Of a DNA stretch of 64,000 bases, positions 19,343 to 51,377 are shown one piece after another (position 1 is the first letter of the stretch; each line of letters opens with the position of its first letter). Made by a program: the position numbers and the translations under genes. Under the pieces are notes generated by a model, which was not told the origin of the DNA, did not search any database, and saw only the letters and a program-made list of their open reading frames with translations. The stretch comes from Candidatus Aenigmatarchaeota archaeon (lineage in GTDB: Archaea > Aenigmatarchaeota > Aenigmatarchaeia > Aenigmatarchaeales > JACQIB01). Location of the stretch: the NCBI GenBank assembly GCA_043799675.1, contig JAZDNN010000027.1, forward strand, positions 2,589 to 66,588, in the 5' to 3' direction.

Positions 19343-20002
19343 GTGAAGCTGGAGCATTCTGAGGAACTTGCCGAGCTGGTCGGAATCATGTTAGGCGATG
19401 GAAATATCTACGAGAGGAGGATACCACCAAAGATTTCTGCTTATCAGGTCCGCATTTGCGGTAGCCTCAAGGATGAAAAGGTATACATGCTGCATTATGT
19501 TGCACCATTAGTCGAAAGGGTTTTTGGGATCAGACCTTCAATCAAGTTTTTCAGAAACAACGGTCTGTACGTATGTCTGCATAGAAAGGAAGTTGTCGAG
19601 GCGCTAAAGGATGTCGGTCTTAAATCTGGCAGCAAGATTGAAAACAGATTAGGTATACCTATTTGGATAAAAGAAAATCCGGATTATCTCCGCGTCTGTT
19701 TACGCGGTTTAATCGATACTGATGGGTCGGTTTATCGACTTTCCAATCGCGATGCAAAATACGGTTATATGAGAATAAGTTTCAAAAACGGAAATCCGCA
19801 GTTGCTTGCGGATGTAAAAGAGGCCCTTGCAAAGTTGGGTATCAGTGCAAGTAAAGTGATTCATTATAATATTTTCATTACTGCGCAAAGCCATGTGCGG
19901 AAATATCAAACCGAAATAGGATTTAAGAACCCTAAACACTTACACCGATTAGCCCCGTCGTCTAGTGGCCAAGAGAGCGCGAAAAACGTTCTGGTAAGAT
20001 AG
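19343..20002 (+). CDS. free-standing double-motif LAGLIDADG homing endonuclease (copy 1)
   Basis: The two LAGLIDADG motifs are LVGIMLGDGNI and LRGLIDTDGSV. The gene has a GTG start and is a homologue of 50649..51299. Its last 17 codons are read from the tRNA-Gln 5' exon and intron 1. The gene is AT-rich relative to its flanks. Confidence 0.8.
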   Translation: MKLEHSEELAELVGIMLGDGNIYERRIPPKISAYQVRICGSLKDEKVYMLHYVAPLVERVFGIRPSIKFFRNNGLYVCLHRKEVVEALKDVGLKSGSKIENRLGIPIWIKENPDYLRVCLRGLIDTDGSVYRLSNRDAKYGYMRISFKNGNPQLLADVKEALAKLGISASKVIHYNIFITAQSHVRKYQTEIGFKNPKHLHRLAPSSSGQESAKNVLVR

Positions 20003-20094
20003 CAGGCTCTGAACCTGTGGACGGAGGTTCGAAACGAACTGCTGTTCGTTTGACTGTGAACGGCAGTTCACTGGAAATCCTCCCGGGGCTACCA
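19951..20094 (+). tRNA. tRNA-Gln(CUG) with two putative non-canonical introns (D-arm ~19975..19999; T-loop ~20034..20077); CCA encoded
   Basis: The acceptor is AGCCCCG/CGGGGCT (A1-U72) and the D-arm is GTCT-AGTGGCCA-AGAT. The anticodon arm is GCAGG-CTCTGAA-CCTGT and the T-arm is GGAGG-TTCGAAT-CCTCC. The fold only forms after removing 25 nt and 44 nt, giving a 75-nt mature tRNA. The exact junctions are ambiguous because AAGA and GAAA repeat at the boundaries. Confidence 0.65.
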
Positions 20095-20484
20095 TCTGTT
20101 TCCCTTCTTTGCCTTCTCGATGTTTGCCAGGATGTAGACCGTGTAATCGTCCTTGTAGCATGGCGGGCAACCCCCGTTGATTGCAATAAGCCTGCTCGGC
20201 ACCTCTTCCTTTGCGTTCAATGCGTTGACCTGGCCGTCATACTTCCAGACCTTGCCGCCCTGCTCCCAGAACATGGGTCTTACAAGGTCTACCGCTATCC
20301 GACTGTCTGGTATGCAGCCCCAGAACCCGGCCGCCACCCTTTGCATCTTCTTCCACCAGTCGTCATACAGGATTTCCTTGCCGCCGACAAGTTCTGCTCC
20401 TCTCTTCCAGCCGTATTCCAGCCATTCCTTAGCTTTCGCTGTTTCGGTTTGTTCCAAGAAACCCTCAAGAGCTATGGGCTGCAT
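20089..20484 (-). CDS. hypothetical protein (131 aa) with a C-terminal CPPC motif
   Basis: This is a clean Trp-rich ORF with GGCPPCYKD near the C-terminus. I recognise no family. The stop overlaps the tRNA-Gln 3' end by 6 nt (convergent). Confidence 0.5.
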   Translation of the reverse strand: MQPIALEGFLEQTETAKAKEWLEYGWKRGAELVGGKEILYDDWWKKMQRVAAGFWGCIPDSRIAVDLVRPMFWEQGGKVWKYDGQVNALNAKEEVPSRLIAINGGCPPCYKDDYTVYILANIEKAKKGNRW

Positions 20485-30465: not shown

Positions 30466-30515
30466 TTTTCATACCTCCATGCTCATGATTCGTTCTGTGG
30501 ACGACCGAAGGTCAA

Positions 30516-30557
30516 GAGGAACATCGTTCCTCGAGACGCGTGAACGTGAGTTCACGC
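30516..30557. repeat. bipartite hairpin element, copy B (in the P0-P1 intergenic spacer)
   Basis: The element reads GAGGAAC-atc-GTTCCTC, GAGAC, GCGTGAAC-gtga-GTTCACGC. The second hairpin and spacer are identical to copy A. The first hairpin differs in sequence but keeps its pairing. Confidence 0.6.
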
Positions 30558-30562
30558 TGTCG

Positions 30563-31423
30563 TCATGCTCCTCCGCTGGCTGCCGTAAGCGCTTCGGCCT
30601 GCGCCTTGGCCCTTGCCATCAGTTCTTCAATTATGCCCTTATCGAGTATTTCCGCTTCCATTCCCAGCGTCTTTGCTTCGCGGAATCCCTTCGCGAGCAT
30701 CGTGCCCATTGTAAGCTTGGTCGGCCAACCCGCGTTCACGGACAGGTTGAAAGCGCCCGTTATCGCTTTCATCAGGTTAGCCATCGTCTTGACATCGTCT
30801 ATCGCCAGCACGTTCTTGTCGTAGAGCGTGCCCGCCTCCCACATGCTCACGATGTCCAGCCCTATTGACATCGGTCTTATTTTCAGCATCGACAGCGCGC
30901 CTGCGAGGTCGGCAGTTATGACGTCCCCCGCCTTTGCGACACGGCTGTCCTTGGAGACGGCTATCTTGCCTCCTTCCACTTTCGCCGCAATCTTGACTTT
31001 CGTGAGCGTGCTTATCGCCGGCCCGGGCGGGATGTCCGTCGGTCCTGCCGGAACCGTGATGTCTTCTGGAGCTATGTCCCCGGCCTTGGCCGACGCGGGG
31101 CTCTTGTTCATGCTGACCGTCCTGTACAGCTTGAACGGGTTGCCGGAGCTCAGCATCACCGCCGGCTGGCTGCCCAGCAGCTTCACCAGGTCCGCCCTGC
31201 CCGCCTTCTCCAGTGCCAGGCGTAGCACGCATTTCTTGACCACCCTGATGTGCGCCTGTCCGGTCAGTGTTCCCTTTATTTTCTGCAGTGCCGAGGCCGG
31301 CATCTTATGCAGGTTGAGTATCGCTATGACGGTAGATTTGTCCATCTCGTGCGCGAGTTTCAAGACCTGCTCGGTCTTTTCCTTTCTCGGGGCCGCCCTT
31401 CCTTTCTTTATGTTTTGCTTCAT
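30563..31423 (-). CDS. rplP0: 50S ribosomal protein uL10 (P0)
   Basis: The 286-aa product has a uL10 N-terminal domain and a C-terminal stalk-helix region. It sits in the conserved uL1-uL10-P1 order. Confidence 0.9.
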   Translation of the reverse strand: MKQNIKKGRAAPRKEKTEQVLKLAHEMDKSTVIAILNLHKMPASALQKIKGTLTGQAHIRVVKKCVLRLALEKAGRADLVKLLGSQPAVMLSSGNPFKLYRTVSMNKSPASAKAGDIAPEDITVPAGPTDIPPGPAISTLTKVKIAAKVEGGKIAVSKDSRVAKAGDVITADLAGALSMLKIRPMSIGLDIVSMWEAGTLYDKNVLAIDDVKTMANLMKAITGAFNLSVNAGWPTKLTMGTMLAKGFREAKTLGMEAEILDKGIIEELMARAKAQAEALTAASGGA

Positions 31424-39547: not shown

Positions 39548-39669
39548 GCCCCTGTAGCTCAGCATGGATAGAGCGCCTGACTTCTATCTCTCGATAGAAG
39601 AGACGAGGCTTAGGCCGATGAAAGGAAGAAATCAGGAGGTCGAGGGTCCGAATCCCTTCAGGGGCGCCA
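39548..39669 (+). tRNA. tRNA-Arg(UCU) with a 44-nt intron at the canonical 37/38 position; CCA encoded
   Basis: The acceptor is GCCCCTG/CAGGGGC and the D-arm is GCTC-AGCATGGATA-GAGC. The anticodon arm is CCTGA-CTTCTA[intron]A-TCAGG and the T-arm is GAGGG-TCCGAAT-CCCTT. The discriminator is G. Confidence 0.85.
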
Positions 39670-48384: not shown

Positions 48385-48864
48385 ATGAAATACCGTGTTC
48401 GCAGCGGTGTGCTCATCCTCAAGGACGGAAAAATCCTGCTCTACCAGAGGCCCGCCGGATACTGGTATTTTCCCGGAGGCGGCATCGAGCATGGCGAGAC
48501 CGCCGAGAGGTGTGCCGTCCGCGAAACGATGGAAGAGACCGGCCTGAAAATAAAGGTCGGGCGCCTTCTGTACGTGCGAAAGTGGAAGCACCCGAACAGA
48601 TGGAAACACGGCGAGAAAAGGGATTTTGACACGACAGTGGAACTTGTTCATCTGGCACGACCGGTCGGAGGAAAGCTCCGGCCCGGTGTGACCAAAGAAG
48701 ATATTGACAGGACAGCATGCATCCGCTGGCTCGGCTTGGAGGAAGCGTCCCGGGTCTGGTTCCTTTCACCCGACCTGTTGAAGATTTTCAGACGTGACTT
48801 GAAATCGCGTTTCAAGGGTTGCCCCCGTTGGCTGGGCGAAACAAGGTTGCATTTCAGGGCTTGA
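48385..48864 (+). CDS. Nudix hydrolase (copy 3)
   Basis: The Nudix box is GGGIEHGETAERCAVRETMEETGL. Confidence 0.85.
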   Translation: MKYRVRSGVLILKDGKILLYQRPAGYWYFPGGGIEHGETAERCAVRETMEETGLKIKVGRLLYVRKWKHPNRWKHGEKRDFDTTVELVHLARPVGGKLRPGVTKEDIDRTACIRWLGLEEASRVWFLSPDLLKIFRRDLKSRFKGCPRWLGETRLHFRA

Positions 48865-49423
48865 AGAAAGTGACCTGGTAGTACTTGACTTCCTTGCTTT
48901 CGCTGACTACCGCCCAGAGCATGTTCGCGCGGATGTTGTGCGCGAGCCTGACCGCCCTGCTCAGCTCCGGGAAGCTGAACGTGTAACCTTCCTGCACGGA
49001 AAACACTATCCATTTGGTATGTTCCTTGGCGGCCTTGGGTCCGCGCTTGAGCGGCTTGACGCCCCTGTCGTAAACCCTGAAATCGCAGCCGAACTTGAAT
49101 CCGGTCCTGGTGGGCAGCTCCCTCTTCCTCAGGTCCCTGTACACCGTGTAGCGCACATCGAACCGCTGGTCGGCCTTCCTGCAGATTTCCTTCATCTCAT
49201 CGATGCCCAGCCGCTTTCCGTCGGCATCGATTATCTCTATCCTTCCTTCCTCAAGCAGGAGCGTCGCCTCAACCAGGGCAAGCTCAAGCCTGTCTTCCAT
49301 GAATTTCCCGTAGTAATCGCTCTCGAAAATTTTCTTCCCTTCCTCCGCGTCCCAGATTATGGCCCTGTCCTCTATCAGCCGCGCCTCGACCTTTCCATCC
49401 CTAGTTGTTTTGCTTTTGCTCAT
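48854..49423 (-). CDS. endA: tRNA-splicing endonuclease, catalytic-type subunit
   Basis: YTVYRDLRKRELPTRTGFKFGCDFRVYDRG...AKEHTKWIVF retains the Tyr and His of the EndA active-site region. ATG 49423 overlaps the upstream paralogue's TGA (ATGA). Confidence 0.8.
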   Translation of the reverse strand: MSKSKTTRDGKVEARLIEDRAIIWDAEEGKKIFESDYYGKFMEDRLELALVEATLLLEEGRIEIIDADGKRLGIDEMKEICRKADQRFDVRYTVYRDLRKRELPTRTGFKFGCDFRVYDRGVKPLKRGPKAAKEHTKWIVFSVQEGYTFSFPELSRAVRLAHNIRANMLWAVVSESKEVKYYQVTFFKP

Positions 49424-49932
49424 GGAACCAGCTCGTTGATTATGTAGTAGGTCACATCCAGGTCGTTGTCCGCAACGGCCCACAGTGCCAAGGCGCGAAT
49501 GTTTGCTGCCAGTCTTATGGCCTTTCCGAGCTGTTCAAGTGCGGCCGGCCAGTCTTCGGCCGAAGCGAACACTATCCATTTTGCAACAGCCGCGGAACCG
49601 GGCTTTGCTCCCCTGTCGTACACCCTGAAATCGCTTCCCTTGAAACCCAGCCTGACAGGCAGGCCTCTTTCCCTGAGGTCCCTGTAAATAGCGTATCTGG
49701 CTGCAAACTTGGAATCGGACTTTGCCGCGAGGTGATACAGCTCGTTGAAACTGAATTTCCTGCTTCCGTCCGTCACTTCAAGCCTGGCCCTTTCGGACAG
49801 CAGGACCGCCTCAATCATGTCAAGGACCACGTTCTCCCCCTCGAGCTCCCCGTACCAGACCGTATCGTAAAGCTCGCGCCCTGCCGGGCCGCTCATTGTG
49901 ACCCTGTTTTCCTTGATGATTCCCTCGACCAT
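49420..49932 (-). CDS. tRNA-splicing endonuclease paralogue, probable structural (non-catalytic) subunit
   Basis: The sequence aligns along its length with the downstream subunit (YAIYRDLRERGLPVRLGFKGSDFRVYDRG...). It reads AAVAKWIVF where the partner reads AKEHTKWIVF, so the His is missing. Confidence 0.75.
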   Translation of the reverse strand: MVEGIIKENRVTMSGPAGRELYDTVWYGELEGENVVLDMIEAVLLSERARLEVTDGSRKFSFNELYHLAAKSDSKFAARYAIYRDLRERGLPVRLGFKGSDFRVYDRGAKPGSAAVAKWIVFASAEDWPAALEQLGKAIRLAANIRALALWAVADNDLDVTYYIINELVP

Positions 49933-50648: not shown

Positions 50649-51299
50649 ATGAAGTTAATGGTTTTTCCATCCAAATCAGAGAAACTTGCTGAATTCTTAG
50701 GAATAATGGCTGGTGATGGCTCCATGGCAGTTTATCGACGAGGTACGAAGACAGATTATCGTGTTATAGTATCCGGCGATAGTAGAGATGATGCCGTATA
50801 CCTGACCAAACATGTACATTCGCTCGTCAAAGAGCTGTTTGGTTTGGAACCGACTTACTGGTATCAGAAATCGCAACATACGATGCACCTTGTCATCAGA
50901 TCCAAGCTTCTCTTGGAATATCTTTCAAGTATTGGGGTTAATGTTGGCAGAAAAATTAATATGTCGATACCAGAGTGGATTCTGGAGAAACGTATTTTCA
51001 TTTTAGCATATCTGAAAGGTCTTTTCGATACAGATGGCGGCATCTACCTCAGAAACGGAACATATCCGGTGGTTTCATTAGCGCAGAAAAGTAGGAAGCT
51101 TGTAGAATCGGTCGAGAAACAATTAAAGGCAAACGGGTTCACCGTTTGGGTAGATTACGATATTGTCAGGAAAGACCCAAGAGGTTTCGTTTCTACAGGA
51201 CACCGATTGTATATATCCGGAAAGAAGAATCTCGGATTGTGGAATAAACACATTGGTTTCAGCAACCCGAAGCATGCAAGCAAGCTGATGGTGGGGTAG
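50649..51299 (+). CDS. free-standing double-motif LAGLIDADG homing endonuclease (copy 2)
   Basis: The two LAGLIDADG motifs are FLGIMAGDGSM and LKGLFDTDGGI. It is a homologue of 19343..20002, and both end in IGF(K/S)NPKH. Its last four codons (ATG GTG GGG TAG) are the complement of the tRNA-Phe 3' end. The gene is AT-rich. Confidence 0.8.
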   Translation: MKLMVFPSKSEKLAEFLGIMAGDGSMAVYRRGTKTDYRVIVSGDSRDDAVYLTKHVHSLVKELFGLEPTYWYQKSQHTMHLVIRSKLLLEYLSSIGVNVGRKINMSIPEWILEKRIFILAYLKGLFDTDGGIYLRNGTYPVVSLAQKSRKLVESVEKQLKANGFTVWVDYDIVRKDPRGFVSTGHRLYISGKKNLGLWNKHIGFSNPKHASKLMVG

Positions 51300-51377
51300 G
51301 GGCGATTTGAACGCCCGACATAGCGGTTCCTGCTTTTTGCTTCAGCCGCTCGCTCTCCCGTGCTGAGCTACTACCCC
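51289..51377 (-). tRNA. tRNA-Phe(GAA) with a 12-nt intron at 37/38; CCA encoded
   Basis: The reverse complement reads GGGGTAG-TA-GCTC-AGCACGGGA-GAGC-G-AGCGG-CTGAAG[CAAAAAGCAGGA]A-CCGCT-ATGTC-GGGCG-TTCAAAT-CGCCC-CTACCCC-A-CCA. Confidence 0.8.

Follow-up and report, generated by a model that had tools for sequence, protein, structure and literature searches.

Can a stretch of DNA in which standard finders see no transfer RNA (tRNA) be a working tRNA gene? This question is raised by a 144-nucleotide (nt) locus at 19951..20094, plus strand, of the window, by which we mean the whole 64-kb stretch of DNA analysed here; the window encodes ordinary archaeal housekeeping genes, and its host is most likely a DPANN archaeon related to Aenigmatarchaeota (the closest AlaRS genes belong to Candidatus Aenigmatarchaeota metagenome-assembled genomes (MAGs), at 47-51% identity). 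Taken together, the anatomy of the gene, the motifs at its intron junctions, the exact joints found in relatives, the selection visible on its cloverleaf, the family to which one of the introns belongs and the presence of EndA genes make it very probable that the locus is a functional tRNA-Gln(CUG) gene whose two introns would be spliced by protein, namely by a two-subunit EndA endonuclease. With the inserts in brackets, the locus reads AGCCCCG-TC-GTCT-AGTGGCCAAG-[AGAGCGCGAAAAACGTTCTGGTAA]-GAT-A-GCAGG-CTCTGAA-CCTGT-GGAC-GGAGG-TTCGAA-[ACGAACTGCTGTTCGTTTGACTGTGAACGGCAGTTCACTGGAAA]-T-CCTCC-CGGGGCT-A-CCA, and without them it yields a canonical 76-nt tRNA, AGCCCCG UC GUCU AGUGGCCAA GGAU A GCAGG CUCUGAA CCUGU GGAC GGAGG UUCGAAU CCUCC CGGGGCU A CCA. 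Its parts, with bulge-helix-bulge abbreviated as BHB, are the following:

19951..19973, plus strand: exon 1, tRNA positions 1-22 (acceptor 5' strand AGCCCCG, U8 and C9, D stem GUCU, D loop AGUGGCCAA, G22)
19974..19997, plus strand: intron 1, 24 nt, at position 22/23 in the D-arm, with a relaxed BHB of the HBh' type
19998..20033, plus strand: exon 2, positions 23-59 (D stem 3' strand (G)GAU, A26, anticodon arm, variable loop, T stem 5' strand, T loop UUCGAA)
20034..20077, plus strand: intron 2, 44 nt, at T-loop position 59/60, with a relaxed BHB of the hBH type
20078..20094, plus strand: exon 3, positions 60-73 and the encoded CCA (U60, CCUCC, CGGGGCU, A73, CCA at 20092-94)

The acceptor halves, anticodon arm and T stem that a sequence-only reading of this DNA had described are all there as it said. 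The acceptor halves are AGCCCCG (19951-57) and CGGGGCT (20084-90), the latter followed by A and CCA; the anticodon arm is GCAGG-CTCTGAA-CCTGT (20003-19), with the anticodon CUG at 20010-12; and GGAGG (20023-27) with CCTCC (20079-83) makes the T stem. In the spliced product all four stems are intact, and U8, A14, G18G19, A21, U33, UUCGAAU, C61, A73 and CCA are present. The first pair, A1-U72 (A19951 with T20090), is typical of archaeal tRNA-Gln, and it is accompanied by the discriminator A73 (A20091) and a 4-nt class I variable loop, GGAC. The window gene also aligns with 113 other tRNA-Gln genes.

Neither default ARAGORN nor Rfam at its gathering threshold returned a match at 19951..20094, and there was no match even at E<=10 in the 351-nt neighbourhood of the locus; such blindness is to be expected when a tRNA is doubly interrupted. 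Once the two segments are deleted, ARAGORN calls tRNA-Gln(ctg), which bears out the earlier proposal that a tRNA-Gln(CUG) can be folded here only after two removals. When such pairs of deletions were enumerated, 1859 of the 5668 variants of the real stretch were called as tRNA, vs. 0 calls in the chance control, i.e., the identical enumeration on 90 random 144-nt stretches of the window. These numbers bear on the reading that there is no tRNA gene here at all, only segments that happen to be complementary in the 3' end of a LAGLIDADG endonuclease gene and in intergenic DNA, for which it can be said that the open reading frame (ORF) at 19343..20002 covers the first 52 nt of the locus. However, the conserved core of that ORF ends at 19950; from there the frame continues across exon 1 and intron 1 until it meets a TAG within exon 2 (20000..20002), a tail that is not conserved in homologues, and tRNA-Gln orthologues lie at the same place in every relative examined. 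We regard a chance origin as next to impossible, the comparative data having in effect refuted it already.

If the locus is a gene, where are its introns cut? According to the archaeal BHB rule, a 4-bp helix forms between the exon bases that precede the 5' site and the intron bases that precede the 3' site, and the cuts fall two nt into the 3-nt bulges; in canonical introns the first two anticodon bases sit in this central helix (PMC4090602). For intron 1, the central (H) helix is GCCA (19968-71) with UGGU (19992-95), 4 bp, flanked by a 3-nt 5' bulge, AG|A, and by the 3' site AA|G, and an h' helix is formed by GAGCG (19975-79) with CGUUC (19987-91). The local minimum free energy (MFE) fold of the intron holds exactly H, the 3-nt bulge and h', and since the 3' site has no adjacent outer helix, the motif is a relaxed one of the HBh' type. 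The resulting mature D-arm is GTCT-AGTGGCCAA-GGAT (in RNA, GUCU-AGUGGCCAA-GGAU), which places intron 1 at 22/23.

For intron 2, the T stem serves as the outer helix, the 3' bulge AA|U (20076-78) is a clean one of 3 nt, and the H helix is UUCG (20028-31) with UGGA (20072-75), 4 bp. The intron itself can adopt two conformers, and the T stem, the 3-nt bulge and the H helix fit both of them: in fold A the 5' site lies in a 4x2 internal loop beside a 14-bp hairpin (20036-49/20056-69), with -26.5 kcal/mol for the whole arm, and in fold B it lies at a three-way junction with two 6-bp hairpins (20034-49 and 20056-71), at -21.1 kcal/mol. The second of these small hairpins is the GTGAAC-GGCA-GTTCAC structure (20056-71) that the sequence-only reading had pointed out. 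The boundaries are 20034..20077, as previously placed, with 20032..20075 or 20033..20076 equally allowed by a run of A, which also makes 57/58, 58/59 and 59/60 equivalent names for the joint. We also considered whether the intron houses a C/D-box small RNA and rejected this, as no C or D boxes are visible in its 44 nt. Hence, both inserts sit at non-canonical places, 22/23 and 59/60, and both carry an acceptable relaxed motif, HBh' at intron 1 and hBH at intron 2; these classes are known for non-canonical introns (PMC4090602, PMC5829648).

To locate the joints in relatives, Logan contigs from environmental metagenomes were aligned to the locus. Symmetric cleavage two nt into each bulge gives exactly the sequence of intron-less relatives (19973|19998 and 20033|20078). 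That is, an intron-less tRNA-Gln(CUG) on one contig (X4 record 8) reads ...AGCCCCGTAGTCTAGCGGCCAAG|GATAGCAGG...GGTTCGAA|TCTTCCCGGGGCTAC, joined at 19973|19998 and at 20033|20078, and exon 2 (19998..20033) is matched over its full length both by this record and by a second intron-less one (X7 record 6), in which the join is 20033|T. A Gln(UUG) gene (X5 record 3) joins directly after 19973, and a further relative (X1 record 2) keeps a D-arm intron and skips exactly 44 nt at the T-loop site (20031 to 20076, with a 2-nt slide), the size given for intron 2.

The same comparison decides about the D-arm insert, for which the sequence-only reading had proposed ~25 nt at 19975..19999 and a D-arm GTCT-AGTGGCCA-AGAT, one nt shorter. 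An insert is indeed present there, with its size and place in need of correction (24 nt, 19974..19997). It is true that the product of the 19975..19999 cut also folds and that ARAGORN calls it tRNA-Gln, as it accepts many neighbouring deletions; its mature sequence would read ...GGCCAAGAUAGC... instead of the ...GGCCAAGGAUAGC... that we favor. However, the GCCA/UGGU helix with the bulges AG|A and AA|G puts the cuts at 19973/74 and 19997/98, and the intron-less relatives read AAGGAT (...GGCCAAG|GATAGC...) and not AAGAT. Further, two other tRNA-Gln genes, L083 and L219, carry a homologous 22/23 intron, of 31 nt (AGAG...UUCUGAUAA) and 36 nt (...GCGUUGGUAA), respectively, with identical bulges AG|A and AA|G and the same joints. 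In L083 the H helix covaries, exon GCCA having become GUCA and intron UGGU having become UGAU, a compensatory change. We therefore consider the shifted cut, and the D-arm that goes with it, highly improbable. In the explanation that we favor, the 22/23 intron would be the older and faster-diverging of the two and common to other tRNA-Gln genes.

Might the locus be a decaying pseudogene, with inserts that are never removed and the working tRNA-Gln(CUG) encoded elsewhere? That standard finders miss it would fit this idea, which the sequence-only reading had itself raised. The conserved positions and four stems left intact by excision speak against it, as do the BHB-type helices in both inserts with the relatives' exact intron-less sequence as the product of symmetric cleavage, and both other tRNA genes found in the window (below) bear introns as well. 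Further evidence comes from L082, a locus syntenic with the window (a DJ-1/PfpI gene, a LAGLIDADG gene, tRNA-Gln(CUG) and then the same gene downstream) with flanks 82-95% identical to it. Its tRNA-Gln differs from the window gene by three compensatory stem changes (27:43 G-U to C-G, 28:42 C-G to G-C and 50:64 G-C to U-A), from which it follows that the gene is under tRNA-type selection; together with the H-helix covariation in L083, this makes the pseudogene reading very unlikely. The L082 gene lacks the T-loop intron, and its D-arm intron, 17 nt long, is unrelated to that of the window, which shows intron content apparently turning over between close relatives.

A two-intron tRNA-Gln gene should be seen against the range of such genes. 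When species-representative genomes were scanned for the 5' end of tRNA-Gln, 120 loci were found, mostly from DPANN, and 114 tRNA-Gln genes were parsed (107 from the scan, six from endonuclease look-ups and the window gene). Among these, 45 are intron-less at 73 nt, four more are without intron and the rest have one to four introns; seven genes other than that of the window, all in DPANN-type MAGs and including the Aenigmatarchaeota MAGs L122 and L147, have both a D-region and a T-loop intron. Exact scans of the same species-representative genomes gave 0 matches for a 20-mer of the anticodon arm and two for a 20-mer of the intron, the latter on bacterial MAG contigs, which we set aside as chance hits that are not tRNAs. 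In a separate Logan record (X4 record 7), exon 1 of a tRNA-Gln is exact to 19973 and the last exon starts from ~20075, with 392 letters between them vs. 101 in the window; this gene is, by all appearances, far more heavily interrupted than ours.

The T-loop intron has a different distribution. A 22-mer of it matches six JGI metagenome contigs, where the intron lies at the identical T-loop site in three other tRNA species: the 44-nt intron occurs in tRNA-Pro(GGG) (L003 and L007, each with further introns in the D loop and the anticodon loop, and L004, without the D-loop intron), in tRNA-Leu(GAG) (L005, L006) and in tRNA-Leu(CAG) (L008). At least five further T-stem/acceptor contexts come from Logan contigs of groundwater, river, wetland and sediment studies, in which ~55 nt agree with 0-1 mismatch. 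Two letters set the window copy apart from the JGI copies, A vs. U at 20034 and U vs. A at 20049; as they pair with each other to close the first small hairpin, the double change is compensatory. In the sole metatranscriptome sharing words with the locus (X14), the intron family is present unspliced, in another tRNA. Thus, the T-loop intron looks like a member of an almost invariant family that has recently spread across the tRNA genes of related organisms.

Which enzyme could remove two such introns? The sequence-only reading had named two EndA subunits at 48854..49932, and two EndA-like genes with Pfam domains are indeed found there:

48854..49423, minus strand: EndA catalytic-type subunit, 189 amino acids (aa), with the Pfam tRNA_int_endo_N and C-terminal domains, Tyr and His, and a Lys-rich insert, VKPLKRGPKAAKEH
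49420..49932, minus strand: EndA structural-type paralogue, 170 aa, with the Pfam EndA N and C domains, its catalytic His lost and no Lys-rich insert

The two genes overlap as ATGA (the ATG of the 189-aa subunit overlaps the upstream stop), and at the His column the catalytic-type subunit has AKEHTKW vs. AAVAKW in the paralogue. Two paralogous subunits with the catalytic His in one of them only is a trait of heterotetrameric (alpha-beta)2 EndA. The best solved relative of the catalytic-type subunit is the Nanoarchaeum equitans alpha subunit (3IEY, E=7e-30), part of an alpha-beta enzyme that Randau and colleagues reportedly described in 2005, and the closest named EndA relatives are from Aenigmatarchaeota, at 67-69% identity. 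The insert VKPLKRGPKAAKEH lies between Tyr and His, aligns with the N. equitans alpha insert and matches the description of the DPANN L3 loop (PMC5829648). A gene for the RtcB ligase is not in the 64-kb window.

The course of events would then be as follows. The locus would be transcribed as a 144-nt precursor, in which each exon-intron junction would fold into a relaxed BHB whose 4-bp helix joins the last exon bases with the 3' end of the intron; the two-subunit EndA (48854..49932) would cut two nt into each bulge; and an RtcB-type ligase would join the three exons into the canonical 76-nt tRNA with its encoded CCA.

Several points weigh against this account. Transcription, cleavage and ligation of tRNA-Gln(CUG) are steps that we infer. 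Neither intron has the strict hBHBh' form (two 3-nt bulges, each with an outer helix): each has one strict bulge, the 5' AGA in intron 1 and the 3' AAU in intron 2, and the remaining site of each (3' in intron 1, 5' in intron 2) falls within a 4x2 internal loop or three-way junction. Two of the four pairs in the H helix of intron 2 are G-U, and the full fold of intron 1 with D stem, H and h' comes, in isolation, to +0.2 kcal/mol vs. -8.8 for the MFE. Finally, the catalytic-type EndA lacks the complete Tyr-His-Lys triad: at the position of Methanocaldococcus jannaschii K156, 31 residues after the His, it has Ala, as do 121 of 124 aligned sequences, with the motif HNIRANMLW instead of HSVRKKLL. 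Because the canonical catalytic Lys is replaced by Ala, cleavage by this EndA is not fully explained. By fold and family the enzyme is an EndA, and its active site departs from the described triad; the lack of the canonical catalytic lysine in the EndA of this clade is a side lead in its own right.

The gene directly upstream raises a further question, i.e., whether it has anything to do with the introns:

19343..20002, plus strand: free-standing double-motif LAGLIDADG endonuclease ORF (Pfam LAGLIDADG_3)

Both of its motifs are intact (LVGIMLGDG and LRGLIDTDG). A search of genome contigs with the protein gave no relative, the homologues having come from a protein database and contig look-ups, and a PDB sequence search with the core gave no match. 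On the other side of the tRNA gene, a minus-strand ORF (20089..20484) stops at a TAG made of tRNA positions 71-73 (CTA, 20089..20091), so both neighbouring frames end within the tRNA gene; L082 is packed alike. Fifteen distinct contexts of the endonuclease gene were available (the contigs of 12 homologues, two from the tRNA-Gln scan and the window), with homologues 40-74% identical, and in 15/15 the gene lies directly 5' of a tRNA-Gln, 13 with CUG and two with UUG anticodons. The hosts are Aenigmat-, Woese- and Nanoarchaeal MAGs (L082-L084, L087-L089, L170, L173, L210, L212, L214, L215, L217 and L219, in addition to the window).

Among the tRNA-Gln genes in these 15 contexts, the D loop or D-arm is interrupted by an intron in 11, an intron lies at ~26-32 in two, and the last two are intron-less. 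By comparison, a D-region intron is found in 20 of 89 tRNA-Gln genes without an endonuclease <=1.1 kb upstream (Fisher p=2e-4; p=3e-5 with automated calls), and when restricted to the same broad clades the association is 11/15 vs. 8/24 (p=0.02), the phylogenetic non-independence of the samples counting against building a homing scenario on these statistics. In such a scenario, the LAGLIDADG gene and the D-arm intron may form one mobile unit (collaborative homing): it is proposed that the endonuclease would target the conserved 5' half of intron-less tRNA-Gln genes, that the D-arm intron would break the target and thereby protect the carrier allele, and that a cut allele would, on being repaired, acquire copies of the endonuclease gene and of the intron. 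The closest parallels are free-standing endonucleases acting with an intron that has no ORF, such as F-CphI and the psbA intron of cyanophage S-PM2 (PMC6083498) or T4 mobE/I-TevIII (PMC2790892). The locus resembles these in having a free-standing endonuclease gene beside a conserved gene with a nearby ORF-less intron, whereas the phage introns are self-splicing group I introns and ours, in an archaeal tRNA gene, would be a BHB intron spliced by protein. Two endonuclease-linked tRNA-Gln genes are intron-less, the 22/23 intron family is also seen where the endonuclease is absent (X1 record 1), and an endonuclease gene inserted at the edge of the tRNA may destroy the target on its own, all of which speaks against homing. 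We consider a mobile unit of this kind possible and rather doubtful; if true, it would provide a DNA-level route for the spread of BHB tRNA introns.

As an observation on the same gene, the codons of its C-terminal motif IGFKNPKH spell an A/T-rich box, TTTAAGAA (19919..19931, plus strand), ~25-30 nt upstream of the tRNA start, and homologues have TTTAATAA or TTCAATAA at this place. The end of the endonuclease gene may thus double as a tRNA promoter.

The two other tRNA genes found in the window are the following:

39548..39666, plus strand: tRNA-Arg(UCU) with an intron of ~45 nt at 37/38 and encoded CCA, the only tRNA found by Rfam in the window
51289..51377, minus strand: tRNA-Phe(GAA) with a 12-nt anticodon-loop intron and encoded CCA, missed by Rfam and by default ARAGORN

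With its intron option (-i), ARAGORN finds tRNA-Phe(GAA) and mislabels it as Leu(gag), and it mislabels tRNA-Arg(UCU) as SeC(tca).

The GTGAAC/GTTCAC arm pair of the T-loop intron recurs in the window, as had been noticed from the sequence, once more at 30540-55 (0.09 expected by chance). This copy lies in a region (30508..30558, plus strand) with two adjacent hairpins, GAGGAAC-ATC-GTTCCTC and GCGTGAAC-GTGA-GTTCACGC, whose GAAC/GTTC arms have the design seen in the two hairpins of the intron. They are situated just past the stop of a minus-strand gene (30563..31423), in a 412-nt gap. An intron or tRNA at the 30540 site was rejected, since an acceptor/T-arm scan finds no tRNA there.

How does this locus relate to what has been described? 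The non-canonical intron sites listed in the literature include both 22/23 and 59/60 (PMC4090602), and the multi-intron state, too, is known from archaea, as the sequence-only reading had stated. The multi-intron tRNAs of Thermoproteales (Pyrobaculum, Thermofilum, Caldivirga) were reported by Sugahara et al. 2007/2008 and by Marck & Grosjean 2003 (reviewed in PMC4090602). The likeness extends to the shortness of the introns, to their non-canonical sites (22/23 and 59/60 among them), to relaxed hBH/HBh' motifs, to two or three introns per gene and to a dependence, here predicted, on a heteromeric EndA. Unlike in Thermoproteales, the host is a DPANN archaeon of mesophilic habitats (its relatives are from groundwater, sediment and wetland) and not a hyperthermophilic crenarchaeon, and the EndA insert is of the DPANN type between Tyr and His, not a crenarchaeal N-terminal loop. 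Intron transposition has also been described in Thermoproteales (a 2010 study cited in PMC4090602). The T-loop family is similar in that tRNAs of different identity (Gln, Pro, two Leu and at least five more contexts) have a near-identical intron at one and the same structural site, and it is unlike the Thermoproteales case in belonging to another lineage, in having another intron sequence and in copies that are almost invariant across studies (0-1 mismatch over 55 nt).

Within DPANN, Kaneta et al. 2018 described an 'L3' insert in the C-terminal region of diverse EndAs and linked it to disrupted tRNA genes, with Aenigmatarchaeota outside their genome set (PMC5829648). The window EndA shares with the DPANN L3 and N. 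equitans enzymes the two genes, one catalytic and one structural, the Lys-rich insert between Tyr and His and the association with many disrupted tRNA genes, and it differs from them in that the canonical catalytic Lys is Ala in its clade. A looser parallel is the three-unit epsilon2 EndA of ARMAN-2/Micrarchaeota with its non-canonical introns (Fujishima et al. 2011, PMC3239211; Hirata et al. 2012, PMC3488258). Ours shares the non-canonical tRNA introns and, by analogy, may likewise be an ultrasmall DPANN archaeon whose EndA has a broad specificity; unlike in ARMAN-2, the enzyme is encoded as two separate genes of ~170-190 aa and not as a fused three-unit protein. Hence, introns at 22/23 and 59/60, tRNAs with several introns and the transposition of introns have all been described already, and the locus is a new, well-supported example of them.

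In terms of annotation, a tRNA-Gln(CUG) that is invisible to ARAGORN and Rfam means that the genome would seem to be without a decoder for CAG codons, and the same missing-decoder gap was noted in DPANN genomes by Kaneta et al. 2018 (PMC5829648). Two side leads, the endonuclease family tied to tRNA-Gln and the clade-wide EndA without the canonical catalytic lysine, could open questions of their own. More broadly, the gene adds a comparatively validated case, based on empty sites that fit exactly, on compensatory changes and on introns that one close relative has and another lacks, to the evidence for a second hot spot of tRNA gene disruption in Aenigmatarchaeota-like DPANN.

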